Shown in pieces: positions 6,165 to 50,963 of a stretch of 64,000 nt of DNA. The notes below the pieces were generated by a model that was not told where the DNA came from, made no database searches, and saw only the letters and a program-made list of their open reading frames with translations. Numbering within the stretch: the stretch's first letter is position 1; each line of letters opens with the position of its first letter. The position numbers were made by a program, and so were the translations under genes. The DNA is from Alistipes sp. GTDB taxonomy: Bacteria; Bacteroidota; Bacteroidia; Bacteroidales; Rikenellaceae. The stretch lies in contig JAZQZQ010000025.1 in the NCBI GenBank assembly GCA_045634125.1, positions 49,941 to 113,940 on the forward strand, written 5' to 3'.

Positions 6165-6458
6165 ATGAAAGCACTATTTATATCATACAATCAGGCGTTG
6201 ACTGATCGTATCAATAAGATGCTTGACCTTCACGGAGTCCGCGGCTTTACACGCTGGGGACTCACCGAGGGTCGCGGTAGCATCGATGGCGAGCCACACT
6301 ATGGCACACACGCCTGGCCAGCAATGAATAGCTCTGTCCTCGCTATTGTCGAGGATGAGAAGATTGCACCACTTCTCGATGCACTTCGTGCAATCGATGA
6401 GACCACTAAGCAGCAGGGGTCGAGAGCTTTTGTGTGGAATATTGAGCAAGCGATGTAG
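6165..6458 (+). CDS. PG0541-family transporter-associated P-II-like protein
   Basis: 97 aa with GRGS..GEPHYGTHAWP motif; last gene of a Bacteroidales RND operon. Confidence 0.8.
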   Translation: MKALFISYNQALTDRINKMLDLHGVRGFTRWGLTEGRGSIDGEPHYGTHAWPAMNSSVLAIVEDEKIAPLLDALRAIDETTKQQGSRAFVWNIEQAM

Positions 6459-6585
6459 TTAGAAACCGTCTAACAAGGCTCTTTTGGCATCTGCCTTATG
6501 CGTAAAATGCTCATTTACGCCAAGTAAACTCCGCTTTTACGCACTGCGAGCAGCTTCAAAATAGCTTTTGTTATACAATTTCTAA
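6459..6585. repeat. Fold-back element family A, copy A1 (127 bp imperfect palindrome)
   Basis: Ends TTAGAAA/TTTCTAA. Core TGCTCATTTAC-gccaa-GTAAACTCCGC is shared with 40592-40857. Confidence 0.85.
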
Positions 6586-6592
6586 AAGAGTA

Positions 6593-6618
6593 TTGGGTGT
6601 CCAAATTTGGACACCCAA
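6593..6618. terminator. Perfect hairpin, likely intrinsic terminator of the RND operon
   Basis: TTGGGTGTCCAAA/TTTGGACACCCAA followed by a T-run. Confidence 0.7.
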
Positions 6619-6743
6619 TCTTTTTAAGGTGAAAAGTGAAAACTGAAAACGGAAAAGTGTGGTGCGCTTTGCGCAGTGTTTTTTAAGACGGCAGAGACAA
6701 AGGGATGACAGCGATATGTTAAAAGGCGATGCCTTTTTGGGGT

Positions 6744-34089: not shown

Positions 34090-36426
34090 ATGAATAGGTT
34101 GATACTTAGATATTTGATAGTTGTGGGGTTGGTGCTTTTTGCCATCTCCTGCGGTGTTACTAGTTCACTATCAGATGGCGAGTATCTTCTTACAAAGGTA
34201 GATGTTAAGGCGGATAAGAGAGTGCCACGTAAGGAGCGCATTACCGTTGAGAAGGATCGATATATCCGTCAGCTACCAAATAAGCGAATACTAGGTTTCT
34301 ATTTCCATGTATGGGTCTATCAGAATGCTAATTACACCAAGAGTGAGCGTATAAATAAGTTTATGCGCAAGATTGGCGAGCCTCCGGTGTTGGTCGATAC
34401 AGCACTCACAGAGCGCTCGGTGCAGAACTTGCAGACCTATCTCCATACTCGCGGATACTTTGCATCGGATGTTAGTTGCGATATTGACACTTCTACATTT
34501 AGACGACATAGAGCAATGATAACATACTCAATAAAGCAGGGTCCCGCAACACGTATAGACTCTATAAGTTACAATTTTAGAGACACCTCGTTGCGGAATA
34601 TAATCCTTGCCGATACAGCCTCCTCGTTAATTGTGCGTGGAGAGATCTTCGATGAGTCGGTATTGGAGGCGGAGCGCAACCGCATTGCTACACTGCTTAA
34701 TAACAATGGTTACTACGACTTTACAGCCAACAGTATCTCATACGAGGTAGACACCCTTGGTAGGGGGTTGGACGCCTCGGTATGTATGGTTGTAAGTCCT
34801 CTGTTAGTGGGCTATAGCGCTAATAGCGAGCAGATTTGGGAGAACCACCACATCTACCGCATCCGCAACATAGATGTCTATCCTACCTACGACCCAATGT
34901 ATCGTTCTACATCGGGTTTTGCGCAGGACGCGAAGATAGATACCACAATTTTCAAGGGTCTAAACATTATTCGCGATTTGGATGCTCCGTCGCAGTTGCG
35001 TAGCATTGTTTTGCGTCGTAATATCATGCTCTATCCCGATCAGGTTTACAACGCTCAGCGTGTATGGAGTACACAGAAGGAGTTGGTGTCGTTGGGCTTC
35101 TTCCGCAGTTCAAAGATCGCCTTTACACCTGTTCCCGATAGCGCGAAACTTGGCGAGAGGTATATTGATTGCAATATCTATGCTGCTCCAGCTCTTAAGC
35201 AGAGTATGAAGGTTGAGGTTGAGGCATCATCTACCTCTACATTCCACGGTCTTAGCTTCACGCTCGGTTATTCGAATAGAAATCTATTCCGCGCTGCGGA
35301 GTCCTTTGACGTATCTACCCGCTTTGGTTTCGAGTGGATGCGCGCCCGTGATGTGGCGAAGCGCAGTGCGCAGGAGATAGGTGTTACTGCGGGTCTCTCT
35401 TTTCCGCGCTTCCTTGTGCCATTCCGTATTACGCCAGGACCAAATATTGCGAAGCCACGTACACGTCTTGAGTTTGCCTTCGACTACCAGAATCGCCCAT
35501 ACTATAGTCGTAACATCTTCACAGCACGATGGGCTTATATCTGGCAGCAGGGTAATCGTGCTTCGTGGGTGTTGCGACCCGTAGATATCAACTGGATTAA
35601 TGTGCAGAGCATCAACGAGACATTCCTTAAGGATATGGACAACCAGTATTTAAAGACATCTTTTGAGTCGCAACTTAATGCTGGTCTCTCGCTCTCGTGG
35701 ATATATAACACGCAACGCTCCGATTTCGATGAGAATGTTACTATCATTCGTGCAAATTTAGAGTCTGTAGGTAATACCCTGCAACTCCTAACTACTGCCT
35801 TTGGAGACAATGCACATAATGAGAGCTATAACAAGATTCTTGGTGTCCGCTTTGCGCAGTATGTGCGTGGCGAGACGAGCATTAGCCATAAGATTGACCT
35901 TGGTGGCAAGATGGCGCTTGCAAGTCGTTTCTTTACGGGTGTAGGTGTAACCTATGGTAACTCAAAGGATCGCTCAATACCTTTCGATCGTATGTTCTAT
36001 TGCGGTGGTGCCAACTCGATGCGTGGTTGGGTGCCTCGTACTTTGGGCCCAGGTAATAAGCCTGAACTTAAAGGTGTTACCTACCCTTCGCAGGTGGGCG
36101 ATGTGCGCCTTGAAGCCAACCTTGAGTATCGTTTTCCTCTATGGTGGATACTTAATGGAGCCATCTTCTTTGATGTGGGTAATGTCTGGTATCTCCGTGA
36201 TACCGAGGATAGCAACCCCGAAGAGGTCTTCCACTTCAATAGCTTCTATAAGCAGCTTGGTTTCAACACCGGTCTTGGTATCCGCCTCGATCTCTCATAT
36301 GTTATTCTCCGTTTCGACCTCGGTATGCAGATTCACAACCCCGATCGCCCCGAGAATAATCGTTGGATAAAGACCTTTAATTGGCAGAATACTGCGCTGA
36401 ACTTTAGTGTCGGCTACCCATTCTAA
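34090..36426 (+). CDS. tamL: TamL/BamA-family outer membrane translocation lipoprotein
   Basis: Lipobox AISC, POTRA-like domains, barrel motifs GGANSMRGW and FFDVGNVW, terminal YPF. Confidence 0.85.
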   Translation: MNRLILRYLIVVGLVLFAISCGVTSSLSDGEYLLTKVDVKADKRVPRKERITVEKDRYIRQLPNKRILGFYFHVWVYQNANYTKSERINKFMRKIGEPPVLVDTALTERSVQNLQTYLHTRGYFASDVSCDIDTSTFRRHRAMITYSIKQGPATRIDSISYNFRDTSLRNIILADTASSLIVRGEIFDESVLEAERNRIATLLNNNGYYDFTANSISYEVDTLGRGLDASVCMVVSPLLVGYSANSEQIWENHHIYRIRNIDVYPTYDPMYRSTSGFAQDAKIDTTIFKGLNIIRDLDAPSQLRSIVLRRNIMLYPDQVYNAQRVWSTQKELVSLGFFRSSKIAFTPVPDSAKLGERYIDCNIYAAPALKQSMKVEVEASSTSTFHGLSFTLGYSNRNLFRAAESFDVSTRFGFEWMRARDVAKRSAQEIGVTAGLSFPRFLVPFRITPGPNIAKPRTRLEFAFDYQNRPYYSRNIFTARWAYIWQQGNRASWVLRPVDINWINVQSINETFLKDMDNQYLKTSFESQLNAGLSLSWIYNTQRSDFDENVTIIRANLESVGNTLQLLTTAFGDNAHNESYNKILGVRFAQYVRGETSISHKIDLGGKMALASRFFTGVGVTYGNSKDRSIPFDRMFYCGGANSMRGWVPRTLGPGNKPELKGVTYPSQVGDVRLEANLEYRFPLWWILNGAIFFDVGNVWYLRDTEDSNPEEVFHFNSFYKQLGFNTGLGIRLDLSYVILRFDLGMQIHNPDRPENNRWIKTFNWQNTALNFSVGYPF

Positions 36427-36559
36427 ATTTCTTGTGATAAGGGGCAACATCTTTGTCCCATCCCAAAAAGTAAGACCCCTCGGGCTGTACTACTTGTACT
36501 ATCCCGAGGGGATCTTCTTGTGCGATAGAACAAATCTGACTCCTTCTGACATGAAATTT
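36425..36559. repeat. Fold-back element family B, copy B1 (135 bp)
   Basis: AAATTTC/GAAATTT ends; core GGGCTGTAC-tactt-GTACTATCCC; homologous to 48286-48414 and 50835-50963. Confidence 0.82.
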
Positions 36560-39580: not shown

Positions 39581-40594
39581 ATGAAATTGAAATTGAATTT
39601 TGCCAATATGTCTGCCTCTGTAAAGGAGTCTGTAACAGATTGGCGTTGGTGGGCACAGATGGCACAGATTGTCTTTGGATGTATCCTTGTAGCTGTCGCC
39701 TTCGTTGTATTTATTAACCCATACAACTTGGTCCCTGGAGGTATTTACGGTTTGGCTTTGGTACTCCACAACCTATTTCCATCAATTCAGGTGGGTACAT
39801 TTGGCTATATGTTTGATGTACCACTTATCTGCACTGCACTTCTTCTTTTTGGCGGTACTTTTGGTGGCCGTACAATCTTCGCATCATTCATCACTCCAGG
39901 TATAATGAATATCCTCGACTACTTGGTTTATCCAAATCAGGCTGCTATCGAGGCTCTCGACCCTACACTTTTGCTCGGTGGTCAGATTAACCTATCATCA
40001 CACCTTATGCTTGCAGCTATTATCGGTGGTGTGTTCAGTGGTATTGGCGTAGGTATCGTTATTCGCAATAATGCTGCTACAGGTGGTACCGATATTACAG
40101 GTATGCTCCTACATAAGTTCGCGAAGATGAAGTTCGCTAATGGTGTTCTTCTTTCTGATGCTATTATCGTGCTTAGTGGTTTAGTGGTTATCGGCTTCGG
40201 TGTCGGTATTGAAGGTCCAGGTCAGGGCGTTGTACTATCTCTCTACTCGGCAGTATGTATCTTCGTGAATGCTAAGGTTTTGGGCTATACTATTGATGGT
40301 GCTTCGCGCGATAAACTCCTTTTTATTATCAGCGAGGAACACTCTGATGAGATGCGCAACTATATCCTTCACGACCTTAATCGTGGTGGTACATATCTTA
40401 AAGCTAAAGGTATGTACACTAACAATGAAAAAGAGATGATCTTCCTTGTTATTAACCGCAAGGAGGTGCGCACCGTACAGCAAAAAATCAAAGAGTTCGA
40501 CCCTACAGCCTTTGTGGTTGTAACTGATGCATACGATACCTTTGGTAAGGGTTTCAAGCCGTTCCCAGAGGAGAATGGTATGCCAACGGAGTAA
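39581..40594 (+). CDS. YitT family membrane protein
   Basis: PGGIYG, ATGGTDI, RGGT...KGMYT, DPTAFVVV C-terminal DUF2179-like domain. Confidence 0.9.
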   Translation: MKLKLNFANMSASVKESVTDWRWWAQMAQIVFGCILVAVAFVVFINPYNLVPGGIYGLALVLHNLFPSIQVGTFGYMFDVPLICTALLLFGGTFGGRTIFASFITPGIMNILDYLVYPNQAAIEALDPTLLLGGQINLSSHLMLAAIIGGVFSGIGVGIVIRNNAATGGTDITGMLLHKFAKMKFANGVLLSDAIIVLSGLVVIGFGVGIEGPGQGVVLSLYSAVCIFVNAKVLGYTIDGASRDKLLFIISEEHSDEMRNYILHDLNRGGTYLKAKGMYTNNEKEMIFLVINRKEVRTVQQKIKEFDPTAFVVVTDAYDTFGKGFKPFPEENGMPTE

Positions 40595-40715
40595 AATTGT
40601 TTTAAGTGGCTCTTTTGGCGTCTGCCTCGATTGAAAAATGCTCATTTACGTCGAGTAAACTCCGCTTTTTCAATCTTCGAGCAGCCTCAAAATAGCCTAC
40701 TTAAAAGCAATTTTA
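40592..40715. repeat. Fold-back element family A, copy A2 (124 bp)
   Basis: TAAAATTG/CAATTTTA ends; core TGCTCATTTAC-gtcga-GTAAACTCCGC. Confidence 0.88.
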
Positions 40716-40747
40716 TTGTGCAACCAGTAAAGTTATTTTTAGATTGT

Positions 40748-40857
40748 TCTTTTGGCGTCTGCCTCGATTGAAAAATGCTCATTTACGTCGAGTAAACTCC
40801 GCTTTTTCAATCTTCGAGTAGTCTCAAAATAGCCGACTTAAAAGTAATTTTATTGTG
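40748..40857. repeat. Family A copy A3 (tandem duplicate lacking the left outer arm)
   Basis: Near-identical to 40611-40720, period 137 bp. Confidence 0.88.
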
Positions 40858-47162: not shown

Positions 47163-48287
47163 ATGAAAAAACTGTTTTTACTACTTGCCCTTATTGGCAT
47201 TATTGGCGTTGGCTGTTCTAAGGAGGAGGTCGATAAAGGCAATGATATCCCTAAAAATATCTTCTTTGGACTTGATAAGGAGAGTATCACTATTTCTCCT
47301 GACGGAGGAAGTGTGGATGTAGTTGTATATAGTAACTACAATTGGGAAATTTCTGGTGTAAGTGATTGGTGTACACCATCAGTAAAAAAAGGTGATGCTA
47401 ATGAGGATGGTCAAAAAGTTACATTCTCTGCAGATGTGGCCTATGACGATAGAGAGGCAACCTTCTGGTTCCGCTGTGCTAATGAGAAGATTAAGTTTGT
47501 TGTTTCGCAGAAATTCAAGGAGGTTTTTATAGCAGATGAGAATAATGTATTCACCGTTTCAGGTTCAGGTGGCGAAGTCGTAATAAAGTATCAAACAAAT
47601 GTAGACTGTGATATTATTATTCCTGAGGAGGCAAAAGATTGGATAACTATTGTTCCAGCAACACGAGGCTTGGTTGCATATAATACTACTCTCAATATTG
47701 ATGCTAATAATTCTAGCGAACTAAGGAGCAGTGTGATTAAGGTTGTCTCTCAAGAAGATAACGAACTATTTGCAGAGTATACCATTAACCAAAATCCGAT
47801 ACGTTTTCTATATTATACATCAAGCGACGGCAATATAGTTAAGCCTTACAGCAGTTCCAGCAGTTCAGCCTTTGATGCTACTATACTGTCTAATACATAT
47901 AAAGATGGGGTTGGTATCATTGAATTTAATGCTCCTATAACCCAAATTGGAAATTATGCATTCTCTGATTGCGATAGCCTAACAAGTGTAACAATTCCTG
48001 ATAGTGTAACTACAATTGGAGAGTGGGCATTCAATGGTTGCAGTAACCTTACAAGTGTAACTATTGGTGATAGTGTAACTACAATTGGTAGTTGGGCATT
48101 CAAAAATTGCAGTAGCCTAACAAGTGTATATTGCAAGGCTGTAACACCGCCTGCTGGAGGTTCTTGGATGTTCGATGGTAACGCCTCTGGTCGTAAGATT
48201 TATGTGCCTGCGGAGTCGGTAGAGGCTTATAAGTCGGCATCTTATTGGAGAAATTATAAATCAGATATTGTTGGCTACGACTTTTAA
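47163..48287 (+). CDS. Surface lipoprotein with two BACON-like domains and BspA-type leucine-rich repeats
   Basis: Lipobox GVGC; BACON W..V and DWITI motifs; 23-aa repeats LTSVTIPDSVTTIGEWAFNGC. Confidence 0.85.
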   Translation: MKKLFLLLALIGIIGVGCSKEEVDKGNDIPKNIFFGLDKESITISPDGGSVDVVVYSNYNWEISGVSDWCTPSVKKGDANEDGQKVTFSADVAYDDREATFWFRCANEKIKFVVSQKFKEVFIADENNVFTVSGSGGEVVIKYQTNVDCDIIIPEEAKDWITIVPATRGLVAYNTTLNIDANNSSELRSSVIKVVSQEDNELFAEYTINQNPIRFLYYTSSDGNIVKPYSSSSSSAFDATILSNTYKDGVGIIEFNAPITQIGNYAFSDCDSLTSVTIPDSVTTIGEWAFNGCSNLTSVTIGDSVTTIGSWAFKNCSSLTSVYCKAVTPPAGGSWMFDGNASGRKIYVPAESVEAYKSASYWRNYKSDIVGYDF

Positions 48288-48414
48288 TTTTCGATTTATA
48301 TAGGGCGTCTTCGTCCTATCCTAAACAAAATATCGTGGGCTGTACGCTTTGGTACTATCCCGCGATATTTTATTTATACGATAGAACAAATCTGCTCCTC
48401 TAAAATCAAAAATT
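48286..48414. repeat. Fold-back element family B, copy B2 (129 bp)
   Basis: AATTTTCGATTT/AAATCAAAAATT ends; core GGGCTGTAC-gctttg-GTACTATCCC; CGATAGAACAAATCTG shared with B1. Confidence 0.82.
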
Positions 48415-48940: not shown

Positions 48941-50836
48941 ATGAGCAAGATTATTGGTATTGATTTGGGTACAACCAACTCGTGTGTGGCTGTAATGGAG
49001 GGTAACGAGCCTGTTGTTATTCCTAACGCTGAGGGTCATCGTACAACCCCTTCTGTAGTGGCATTTACTGAGGGCGGTGAGCGCAAGGTGGGTGATCCTG
49101 CAAAGCGTCAGGCTATCACTAACCCTAAGCGTACAGTATTCTCTATTAAGCGCTTTATGGGTGAGCGTTACGATGCAGTAACATCAGATATCGCACGCGC
49201 TCCATACTCAATCGTTAAGGGCGACAACAACACTCCACGTGTAGACATCGACGGTCGTCAGTACACTCCACAGGAGATTTCGGCTATCATTCTTCAGAAG
49301 ATGAAGAAGACGGCAGAGGATTACCTTGGTCAGGAGGTTACAGAGGCAGTTATCACTGTTCCTGCATACTTCTCTGACTCACAGCGTCAGGCTACTAAGG
49401 AGGCAGGTGAGATTGCTGGTTTGAAGGTACGTCGTATCATCAATGAGCCTACAGCTGCGGCTTTGGCATACGGTCTCGATAAGAAGCAGAACGATATGAA
49501 GATTGCTGTATACGACCTTGGTGGTGGTACCTTCGATATCTCAATCCTTGAGTTGGGTGATGGCGTATTCGAGGTTAAGTCTACAAATGGTGATACTCAC
49601 CTTGGTGGTGATGACTTCGACCACGTTCTAATCGACTATATGGCCGAGGCATTCAAGGCTGAGCACCAGATCGACCTTCGTCAGGATCCTATGGCATTGC
49701 AGCGTTTGAAGGAGGCTGCTGAGAAGGCTAAGATTGAGCTTTCATCTGCTACAACAACAGATATCAACCTCCCATACATCATGCCAGTAAATGGTATCCC
49801 TCAGCACCTCGTAATGACACTTACACGCGCTAAGTTCGAGCAGCTTTGCGACCACCTTGTACAGAAGACTATCGAGCCATGTCGTGTAGCTTTGCGCGAT
49901 GCAGGCTTGCAGGCAAGCCAGATCGACGAGGTTATCCTTGTGGGTGGTTCTACACGTATCCCTGCTATCCAGCGCGTTGTTGAGGAGTTCTTCGGTAAGG
50001 CTCCTAACCGATCAGTAAACCCAGATGAGGTTGTTGCCGTAGGTGCTGCGATCCAGGGTGGCGTTCTTACAGGCGAGGTTAAGGATGTGCTTTTGCTCGA
50101 CGTAACTCCACTTTCACTCGGTATCGAGACTTTGGGTGGTGTGATGACTCGCCTTATCGAGGCTAACACTACAATCCCTACTCGTAAGAGTCAGGTGTTC
50201 TCTACAGCCGCTGATAACCAGCCAACTGTAACTATCAATGTATGCCAGGGTGAGCGCGCAATGGCTGCAGATAACAAGTCTATCGGTCAGTTCAACCTCG
50301 ACGGTATCCCAGCAGCTCCACGTGGTGTGCCACAGATCGAGGTTACATTCGATATCGACGCTAACGGTATCCTTAACGTATCTGCTAAGGACCTTGGTAC
50401 AGGTAAGGAGCAGAAGATTCGTATCGAGGCTTCAAGCGGCTTGACAGATGCTGAGATTCAGCGTATGCGCGACGAGGCTAAGGCTAACGAGGCTAAGGAT
50501 AAGGCCGAGAAGGAGCGTATCGAGAAGATCAATATGGCGGACTCAAATATCTTCGCTTCAGAGAAGAATCTTAAGGAGTACGGCGATAAGCTTCCTGCTG
50601 ATAAGAAGTCGGCTATTGAGGGCGCTCTTGCAAAGCTTAAGGAGGCACACGCAGCTAAGGATATCGCAGCTATCGACACAGCTATCGAGAACCTTAACGC
50701 TGCATGGCAGGCAGCCTCACAGGATATCTACGCTCAGCAGCAGGCACAGCAGGCTCAGGGCGCACAGGGTGCCGAGCAGCAGGGCGCAGAGCAGCAGGCA
50801 CAGCCTGAGGATGTGGAGTTTGAGGAGGTAAAGTAA
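48941..50836 (+). CDS. dnaK: Chaperone DnaK
   Basis: [25 protein letters not shown]. Confidence 0.99.
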
Positions 50837-50963
50837 TTTCTCAGGAGAAGGCAGACATCTGCTGCCGCTAACAAAAAGTCCCGACAATGAGCAGTACACC
50901 AAGTACAGCCCATCGTCGGGATTTTTGCCGAGCGTTGCATCTGCAGCCTTCTCCTGAGAAATT
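50835..50963. repeat. Fold-back element family B, copy B3 (129 bp, core inverted)
   Basis: Perfect 18-bp terminal IR AATTTCTCAGGAGAAGGC; minus-strand core GGGCTGTAC-ttggt-GTACTGCTC. Confidence 0.82.

Follow-up and report, generated by a model that had tools for sequence, protein, structure and literature searches.

The locus and its fold-back copies

The stretch of DNA considered here (the window) comprises 64,000 nt of an Alistipes sp. contig and belongs to a source genome of 1.87 Mb in 38 contigs. It carries three copies of a short fold-back repeat, designated family A (copies A1, A2 and A3; Table 1), whose nature and kinship are the subject of this analysis. All three are imperfect palindromes of 124-127 nt that share a core, TGCTCATTTAC-N5-GTAAACTCCGC, and their coordinates and sequences are as described in the original prediction, which was made from the letters of the window. 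The core occurs three times in the window against an expectation of zero (100 shuffles). A1 starts 1 nt past the TAG stop codon of a small open reading frame (ORF). The other two copies had been given a joint span, 40592-40857, and fold-back copies are indeed present there; the span divides into two units, A2 and A3. The first TA of A2 is part of the TAA stop codon of a YitT-family gene (39581-40594; assigned from ORFs and Pfam), the core, loop and inner stem are common to A2 and A3, and A3 is followed by a MiaB-like gene. Named records with near-identical copies, together with the sequencing runs that hold the window, point to an Alistipes-like bacterium living in the ruminant gut.

Table 1. 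Family A copies and associated features in the window (R1, covariance model of family A described in the text; aa, amino acids).
Feature	Position	Strand	Basis and remarks
Copy A1	6459-6585 (127 nt)	+ is the pyrimidine (mRNA-sense) strand; - is the better-folding GA strand	Sequence, folds; R1 match 6473-6571, - strand, 65.1 bits, E 1.9e-16
A1 core, TGCTCATTTAC-GCCAA-GTAAACTCCGC	6508-6534	+	Exact pattern match
TAG stop of 97-aa ORF 6165-6458	6456-6458	+	ORF list, Pfam; ORF lies downstream of an AcrB-type gene
Terminator-like hairpin, T runs on both sides	6592-6619 or 6592-6628, 6 nt past A1		Terminator scan
Family-B-core fold-back element, outer arms TAAATTTCTTGTGATAAGGGG..CTTCTGACATGAAATTT	36425-36559	+	Sequence
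Copy A2	40592-40715 (124 nt)	+	Sequence; R1 match 40604-40702, - strand, 73.6 bits
A2 core	40639-40665	+	Pattern match
Copy A3, tandem partner of A2	40728-40852 (125 nt)	+	Sequence; R1 match 40741-40839, 60.7 bits
A3 core	40776-40802	+	Pattern match

A dispersed family with exchangeable arms

The prospect had been raised that these three copies might be the only ones and might lack significant covariation. The source genome instead contains 27 copies by core pattern and 34 by covariance model R1, dispersed over more than 20 contigs beside unrelated genes, and their covariation is strong. R1 was built from an alignment of 39 diverse copies in the better-folding strand (the alignment is itself named A1), with no enterobacterial sequence included.

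The copies measure 124-135 nt and follow one layout, in which taxon- or subfamily-specific outer arms and a variable inner stem enclose a conserved, strand-asymmetric central module. Subfamily I, to which A1-A3 belong, has the arms GGCTCTTTTGGCATCTGCC..GAGCAGCTTCAAAATAGCC. Subfamily II has arms beginning GAGAGTGAATAAAAAG.. and a conserved terminator-like hairpin after them, and a third kind of arm, ATTTCTTGTGATAAGGGG..CCCCTTCTGACAAGAAAT, is found mostly with a different centre (family B). The idea that the core is inverted relative to the arms in subfamily I, with CAAGGC and CGCAG on swapped sides, was withdrawn after 32 copies had been lined up, because subfamilies I and II are collinear.

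Family B has a centre of the form ..GTAC-N5-GTAC.. and is represented in the window by elements at 36425-36559, 48286-48414 and 50835-50963. The outer arms of the first of these are also borne by some A-core copies elsewhere in the genome. Probes for the ATTTCTTGTGATAAGGGG..CCCCTTCTGACAAGAAAT arms gave 123 and 137 matches in 1.87 Mb, in overlapping lists, and the paired matches lying 107-113 nt apart suggest several dozen elements with such arms, outnumbering family A. At C3:15140 and C33:40762 (contig:position) these arms enclose a family A centre, so that arms and centres are modular and recombine.

Further features of the subfamilies were seen in individual contigs. Subfamily II copies at C5:25040-25110, C15:40090-40165, C30:112090-112160 and C37:48190-48265 have a conserved TTAGGTTATGGGG after them, as well as a terminator-like hairpin (GGCTGGCTAAGTTACTTTTTAGTCAGCC) that consequently seems to belong to the repeated unit. 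Several subfamily I copies (C6:36420-36460, C8:2330-2371, C22 and C24:19090-19130) stand after paralogous genes whose products end in ..D(I/M)(V)GY(N/D)F before the stop codon, and are nested in a truncated left arm of the other family (TAATTTCCTTGTG, then TA, then CAAAG..). Three of these lie at contig ends, and the repeats therefore break the assembly. The family accounts for many contig breaks, and for many hairpins in 3' untranslated regions (3' UTRs), in the source genome.

Fold, covariation and strand asymmetry

Copy A1 folds with a predicted energy of -38.6 kcal/mol on the plus strand and -46.9 kcal/mol on the minus strand (z -4.3 and -4.9, respectively, vs shuffles). The stems quoted in the original prediction, TGCGTAAAA/TTTTACGCA and GATTGAAAAA/TTTTTCAATC, are present and do pair. 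Two segments that it had called poorly paired, GGCTCTTTTGGC and CAAAATAGCC, in fact pair together (GGCT.TTTTG with CAAAA.AGCC) and are conserved within one subfamily only.

On the better-folding strand the consensus of the 39 copies reads CAAGGC - stem - GA - 4 bp - A GC G GAG UUUAC N5 GUAAA UGA GC A U - 4 bp - GA - stem - AACGCAG. The two GA dinucleotides lie opposite each other, where tandem G-A pairs are possible, and GAG and UGA beside the apex stem contribute one G-U pair and two further G-A pairs; a single G and a single A bulge out. In subfamily I, the window's own, continuous pairing takes the place of the GA/GA mismatch.

In the cross-phylum alignment 95.7% of cells are paired vs 73.4% in shuffles (0/500), both sides change in 16 of 25 pairs, and the covariation score is 0.578, compared with 0.164 in shuffles and at most 0.11 in slid controls. 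Copies from the source genome alone give 94.9% paired cells vs 78.6% in shuffles, with both sides changing in 15 of 25 pairs and all slid controls at or below 41% paired, although this alignment leans towards the model because it was fitted to it. The proposal of covarying stems around conserved, strand-asymmetric loops in a multi-copy family is upheld by these values (95% paired vs 73-79% in shuffles).

The asymmetry is also clear in stability. The GA strand, reading GCGGAGTTTAC..GTAAATGAGCA, is the more stable in 121 of 140 copies, by a mean of ~7 kcal/mol, because the same positions on the complementary strand form pyrimidine mismatches. The fold is strand-asymmetric, as originally proposed, but only in the core and in the adjacent GA/GA mismatch; in the variable arms there is no excess of G-U pairs on either strand (2.17 per copy on the GA strand vs 2.65 on the other). 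An excess of G-U pairs was considered as an indicator of an RNA strand and was discarded for this lack of asymmetry. In the arms, G-U positions are as common as A-C positions, so the covariation of the arms, which had been read as a possible sign of RNA, does not serve as one. The arms behave as symmetric DNA palindromes and strand-specificity is confined to the centre. This carries a caution for structure searches, since strong stem covariation in a DNA palindrome is by itself no proof of RNA function.

Host range and the conserved core

Within the genus, 15 of 25 genomes carry between 4 and 75 copies and the remaining 10 carry none. An even sample of the phylum gave matches in 22 of 151 genomes and 4 of 89 genera; the carriers other than the source genome all belong to one other family, and their copies have GTAC-type centres. 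A scan for the exact core in one genome per species returned at least 120 loci. Among the loci listed, the Proteobacteria are represented by Pseudomonas and its relatives, Halomonas, Salinicola, Marinospirillum, Methylophaga, Cellvibrionaceae, Nitrosomonadales and Burkholderiales, the Bacteroidota by Alistipes, Tidjanibacter, other Bacteroidales and Lentimicrobiaceae, and the Oligoflexales by one metagenome-assembled genome.

The same 22 fixed core bases are identical between gut Bacteroidota and Pseudomonas-like bacteria, and at every cross-phylum locus the core stands at the top of a ~130-nt hairpin with taxon-specific arms. Selection on the conserved centre is the natural reading, and is supported by the identity of the core across phyla where the arms differ. 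Copies are also carried by 19 plasmids of Pseudomonas or Halomonas, the majority of which are conjugative or mobilisable, and by 6 viral contigs, in which the paired copies are ordinary elements. A literature search on the letters of the core returned unrelated primer matches only.

Many Pseudomonas copies (L035, L046, L052, L068, L073, L077, L095, L097 and L130) have an extra insert of ~60 nt (..GCCGCTTGCGGCTAACGC..GGGCGAGCGnAGCGAGT..) abutting the core. The insert occurs in either arm and in either orientation, and a second small element therefore seems to target this one.

Orientation beside stop codons and transcription

An ORF stop codon lies within 45 nt of the model match, i.e., at or a few bases from the end of the element, in 26 of the 32 full-length copies of the source genome. 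The GA strand is antisense to the stop-adjacent gene in 24 of these 26 (two-sided binomial p = 1e-5), so that the strand present in the mRNA is the pyrimidine one, which folds less well. In Proteobacteria either end of the element may stand beside a stop codon, and any bias is weaker (~24 vs 17, a rough count from a noisy ORF scan). A contig from an RNA run (6380-6490) extends from the 3' end of the gene across the stop codon into A1, and the depth of RNA-run contigs is 17-141 over A1 and 1.3 at the terminator.

Insertion sites and evidence of mobility

In the source genome, TA stands at both ends of most copies. The flanks of the proteobacterial copies are CTAG, TTAA or TTAG, as in the plasmid copy L186, which lies between CTAG and CTAG. 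The stop codon orthologous to the A1 site is followed in relatives by zero (L154, G015), one (L153, G013), two (L151, G012) or three (L152, G010) family B elements, and this varied occupancy implies either that the gene end is hit repeatedly, as a hot spot, or that its occupant is replaced in place. In the relative with the empty orthologous site (L154) the sequence is too diverged for a TA duplication to be read.

Tandem and nested copies occur. One metagenome contig (run X1) joins 40649 to 40791, the joint having 3 additional letters, and is compatible with an allele of one copy where the source genome has the A2-A3 tandem. Metagenome contigs yielded no empty-site allele for A1 and, for A2/A3, only this contig. 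Metagenome contig depth over the element is ~10-400x that of the flanks. Past A1, a short stretch at 6622-6679 that includes the hairpin TGCGCTTTGCGCA and a T run after it likewise has a metagenome contig depth at least 100x that of its flanks, and is therefore a further short repeat of wide occurrence or else a common terminator module. No autonomous version was recognised, in that no arm pair in the source genome was seen to enclose a gene-sized insert and the readable paired matches keep the 107-113-nt spacing given above.

Search for a mobilising enzyme

The window contains no transposase, as had been stated at the outset, and none of the three types sought (PF13358, PF01609 and PF01797) was found anywhere in the source genome. 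The IS630-type domain PF13358 is absent from all 15 element-bearing genomes of the genus, and the same holds for the Y1/HUH domain PF01797, which is common elsewhere in the order. The IS4/IS5-type domain PF01609 is absent from 13 of the 15 and has one match in each of the other two. The majority of these assemblies are metagenome drafts, which can lose insertion sequences (IS), so that these absences are suggestive rather than proof. A MITE (miniature inverted-repeat transposable element) of the IS630/Tc1 type, such as RUP, was considered because TA ends are present, and was rejected because PF13358 is missing from all carriers in the genus.

Genome size shows a related pattern. Fold-back repeats abound in the small genomes of the genus (1.7-2.4 Mb), in which IS630 and Y1 domains were not found and IS4/IS5 domains are almost lacking; in the larger ones (3.2-3.8 Mb) IS4/IS5 transposases are numerous and these repeats are missing.

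Similarity to ERIC and to Rfam models

Enterobacterial repetitive intergenic consensus (ERIC) elements have a core that is known from the two standard ERIC-PCR primers, and this core is present in 5,424 of 5,426 E. coli genomes. The ERIC centre, CCCCAG-GAG-CTTAC-ATAA-GTAAG-TGA-CTGGGG (GGAGCTTAC-ATAA-GTAAGTGA), has the same design as that of family A. R1 aligns over its full length to the E. coli ERIC copy between ybhI and ybhJ. With filters off, its best match falls at the ERIC position in all 12 ERIC loci of one E. coli chromosome, each time over the full model length (13.6-28.9 bits, E 5.5e-6 to 0.18), and every match outside the ERIC positions has E of 0.49 or more. The motifs CAAGG, GA, GGAG-CUUAC..GUAAG-UGA, GA and UAACGC are aligned between R1 and ERIC in the same order. 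The comparison supports kinship with ERIC at the level of a superfamily, in which family A would form a distant branch and not ERIC proper.

Whether the element belongs to a described Rfam or IS-end family was likewise asked. No Rfam model matches it, either when the window is scanned at gathering thresholds or when 6400-6700 is scanned permissively, but it is distantly related to the ERIC repeats, which had already been described. Two Rfam families are matched by its relatives. The ERIC copies at L148 259-382 and L173 1505-1628 match V_AS5 over the whole model at 45-46 bits (threshold 96). V_AS5, annotated as 'Vibrio RNA AS5', looks like a Vibrio ERIC. The second family, sX9 (RF02228), has sub-threshold matches of 25.7-34.5 bits (gathering threshold 44) to sister elements of the GTAC type, on their pyrimidine strand, and to an element beside E. 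coli qseE; it has no match to the window copies at E up to 10.

The qseE element lies in the qseE-qseG spacer of E. coli NZ_CP025916.1 (L149 95-250) and is a hairpin of ~150 nt directly after the qseE stop codon, with the centre TCCTCACGTAC-GACGT-GTACGCTCCGG. It is matched by R1 at 31 bits and by sX9 at 31.7 bits, the latter below threshold. It may be a little-studied E. coli repeat and a third branch of the same superfamily.

A probable non-autonomous miniature element and the alternatives

What, then, is family A? It is probably a non-autonomous fold-back miniature element, or MITE, of the ERIC/IRU (intergenic repeat unit) kind, a new and distant member of that group rather than a substrate of HUH enzymes. 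Judged from the ends of the copies and from differences between genomes, the element would insert at TA (at CTAG, TTAA or TTAG in Proteobacteria) and apparently duplicate it. Insertions in the source genome would fall on or directly after stop codons, with tandem arrays and nested insertions being formed. Mobilisation would occur in trans, by an enzyme that the source genome appears not to encode. Once inserted ahead of the terminator, the element would be carried into the 3' UTR of the upstream mRNA, and the orientation preference would likely stem from selection at the RNA level, as proposed for stop-adjacent ERIC copies. Because the core is identical across phyla while its surroundings change, it is probably a cis-acting site for spread or retention, read by some partner as a folded single-stranded nucleic acid.

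Several observations weigh against a MITE of this kind. Despite ~34 copies and many elements of the second family, none of the sought transposase types is present in the genome, and IS4/IS5 transposases are concentrated in the element-free genomes of the genus, so that PF01609 is if anything anti-correlated with the element. MITEs of the DDE type need terminal repeats only, which leaves the conserved centre and the pairing over the whole length unexplained; the letter-perfect centre is indeed the part that no current model explains, given that a classical transposase requires the ends alone. Target duplication is deduced from end sequences and diverged orthologous sites, and a clean pair of empty and filled alleles at the strain level was not obtained. 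CTAG and TTAA are palindromic, so a duplication of these flanks is indistinguishable from an extension of the inverted repeat, and the flanks of A1 (TTAG..CTAA) are inverted and not direct, which restricts a possible duplication to their central TA. ERIC is matched only distantly, by a structure-aware model alone, with most E-values between 0.03 and 0.2 and no similarity at the BLAST level, and V_AS5 does not match the window copies. Evidence for transcription is weakened by contigs that have no direction, by a metatranscriptome that may contain DNA, and by the pooling of many organisms.

The element might instead be a functional RNA of the 3' UTR (stabilising the mRNA, marking a site of processing, giving rise to a 3'-derived small RNA or belonging to the terminator) that is retained by the host, its mobility being incidental or absent. 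Much of the local evidence agrees with this: a stop codon within 45 nt in 26 of 32 copies and one orientation in 24 of 26, placement between stop codon and terminator hairpin, a repeated unit in subfamily II that includes a terminator-like hairpin, an RNA contig covering gene and element, a structure that covaries, and a relative, sX9, that was detected as a 75-nt RNA (PMC3300014). The distribution points the other way. Ten of the 25 genomes of the genus manage without the element, the orthologous gene end bears zero to three elements of another family in relatives, copies lie on plasmids, in viral contigs and nested within each other, and the neighbouring genes are functionally unrelated. Moreover, the arms lack strand-specific tolerance of G-U pairs and the strand with the conserved G-A motifs is not the one present in the mRNA, and we regard a retained 3'-UTR RNA as unlikely. 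The equal frequency of G-U and A-C positions in the arms is just what a symmetric process at the DNA level predicts, and arms are exchanged between families of different core; palindromy and covariation could accordingly be mutational, arising from templated correction of quasi-palindromes or from fold-back copying of arms, with only the core informative. Such symmetrising would, however, erase the asymmetric features that different phyla conserve (the GA/GA mismatch, CAAGGC facing AACGCAG, and the bulged G and A), and ~95% pairing is found across lineages whose stems share no sequence, which makes a purely mutational origin improbable.

Two further possibilities involve enzymes that act on a folded strand. 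The original prediction had pointed to the single-stranded DNA hairpins of HUH (Y1) transposases, as in REP/REPIN-RAYT or IS200/IS605-like systems, and the strand-asymmetric fold, the conserved bulged and mismatched bases and the lack of a classical transposase would suit such a substrate. HUH elements, however, make no target duplication, and the TA or YTAR flanks of family A look like one; no Y1_Tnp domain occurs in the source genome or in the 15 element-bearing genomes of the genus; and the 67 copies on a complete Salinicola chromosome have their strands intermixed, with no switch between chromosome halves visible by eye that would indicate a replication-strand bias. At 125 nt, paired throughout, the element also differs from the 20-40-nt GC-rich REP, and the analogy is very hard to sustain. 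An integron attC or Xer-type site, recombined as a folded strand by a tyrosine recombinase, would account for an imperfect palindrome of attC-like length with extrahelical bases, and the centre TTTAC-N5-GTAAA is an inverted repeat. Yet the copies are dispersed over more than 20 contigs beside unrelated genes without forming cassette arrays, and their conserved centre and variable ends are the reverse of attC, in which the R''/R' ends are conserved and the centre varies, so that we give this possibility almost no credence.

A bolder extension of the MITE reading can be put forward tentatively, and we hold it to be doubtful. The 27-nt centre with its tandem G-A motifs may be a module in its own right that one widespread partner reads in the form of a folded single strand, and ERIC, sX9-type elements and family A may be one cross-phylum superfamily. 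Such a module could have been preserved to the letter in Bacteroidota, Gamma- and Betaproteobacteria and Oligoflexales while local arms were swapped in. The partner would then be either a host factor of universal occurrence or an enzyme that mobilises the element but differs from the classical transposases, and presence/absence profiling (15 of 25 genomes) would give a way to test which agent moves ERIC-type repeats and what role these have. The uneven occurrence inside a single genus in any case gives a comparative handle that could help in finding the partner protein. The value of the family lies in this handle on an old question, together with the cross-phylum core and the transposase-poor host genomes.

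Comparison with known repeat families

REP/REPIN-RAYT repeats and IS200/IS605 ends resemble family A in being short structured repeats with conserved unpaired bases, and they are read as folded single strands. REP (repetitive extragenic palindromic) sequences are 20-40-nt GC-rich palindromes with a GTAG or CGTC tag, whereas family A is 125 nt long, AT-rich and without a tag. Palindrome-associated elements derived from IS200/IS605 are characterised by hairpins in subterminal position, a TnpA in the genome, a lack of target duplication and an orientation linked to replication, unlike family A with its TA flanks, its missing Y1_Tnp and its strands intermixed along a complete chromosome.

MITEPsy1 of Pseudomonas syringae, a 100-nt element, transposes in vivo into CTAG or YTAA targets with a 4-nt duplication (Bardaji et al., 2011; PMC3189936), and its authors propose mobilisation by an IS5-family transposase (PMC3189936). 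Proteobacterial members of family A have the same flanks, and the MITEPsy1 terminal repeat GGAAGGTCTGAAAAAGCC resembles some of their arms, e.g., GCAATGTCTGAAAACTG. Membership of MITEPsy1 in the family was rejected, as it lacks the TGCTCATTTAC..GTAAACTCCGC core and is not paired throughout; GGAAGGTCTGAAAAAGCC itself is absent from all fetched loci. IS5-group elements target YTAR, which the proteobacterial flanks match. MITEPsy1 may serve as a lead to the type of transposase, for the proteobacterial arms only.

The sX9 family was described as a 75-nt Xanthomonas RNA confirmed by northern blot (PMC3300014) and ranks among the most abundant multi-copy 'sRNAs' (small RNAs) of bacterial genomes (PMC9029176). 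Its model runs from an apex hairpin (AUGUAC-N5-GUACA-CUCCGG) down the right arm of the pyrimidine strand, a layout like that of family A (GUAAA-CUCCGC and the right arm), although the core is of the GTAC type, unlike that of family A. It has been described as a small-RNA gene and not called a mobile repeat (PMC3300014; PMC9029176). Both sX9 and V_AS5 look like transcripts of such repeats, which is a warning for the annotation of Rfam 'small RNAs'.

The closest parallel is with ERIC, also called IRU or RU-1, a MITE with TA ends and a target-site duplication that is co-transcribed and affects the upstream mRNA in an orientation-dependent manner (PMC2229807; PMC3184786). At 127 bp, ERIC has the length of A1 (127 nt) and, like family A, is an imperfect palindrome throughout in which the centre is most conserved. 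The motifs follow the same order in both: (C/G)AAGG, GA, GGAG-YUUAC-loop-GUAAR-UGA, GA and AACGC. TA termini, an intergenic position and adjacency to stop codons are also held in common, and the E. coli example ends 1 nt from the ybhI stop codon; few E. coli ERIC copies adjoin an ORF end. Work by De Gregorio in 2005 is said to have found that ERIC copies beside stop codons prefer one orientation. We know of no mobilising enzyme for ERIC, nor of a role for its conserved centre. The two differ in that the apex stem is UUUAC/GUAAA with a 5-nt loop in family A vs CUUAC/GUAAG with a 4-nt loop in ERIC, and in that the arms of family A are unrelated in sequence to those of ERIC. Their hosts are also different: ERIC occupies Enterobacteriaceae and vibrios, whereas family A is found in Bacteroidota and non-enteric Proteobacteria, outside the ERIC range (Alistipes-like bacteria and a second Bacteroidota family, Pseudomonadaceae, Halomonadaceae, Nitrosomonadales and Oligoflexales). 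Strain typing has made use of ERIC repeats for decades, and their design, a 127-bp hairpin with TA ends, central G-A motifs and a position at stop codons, is not an enterobacterial oddity but recurs in distant phyla.

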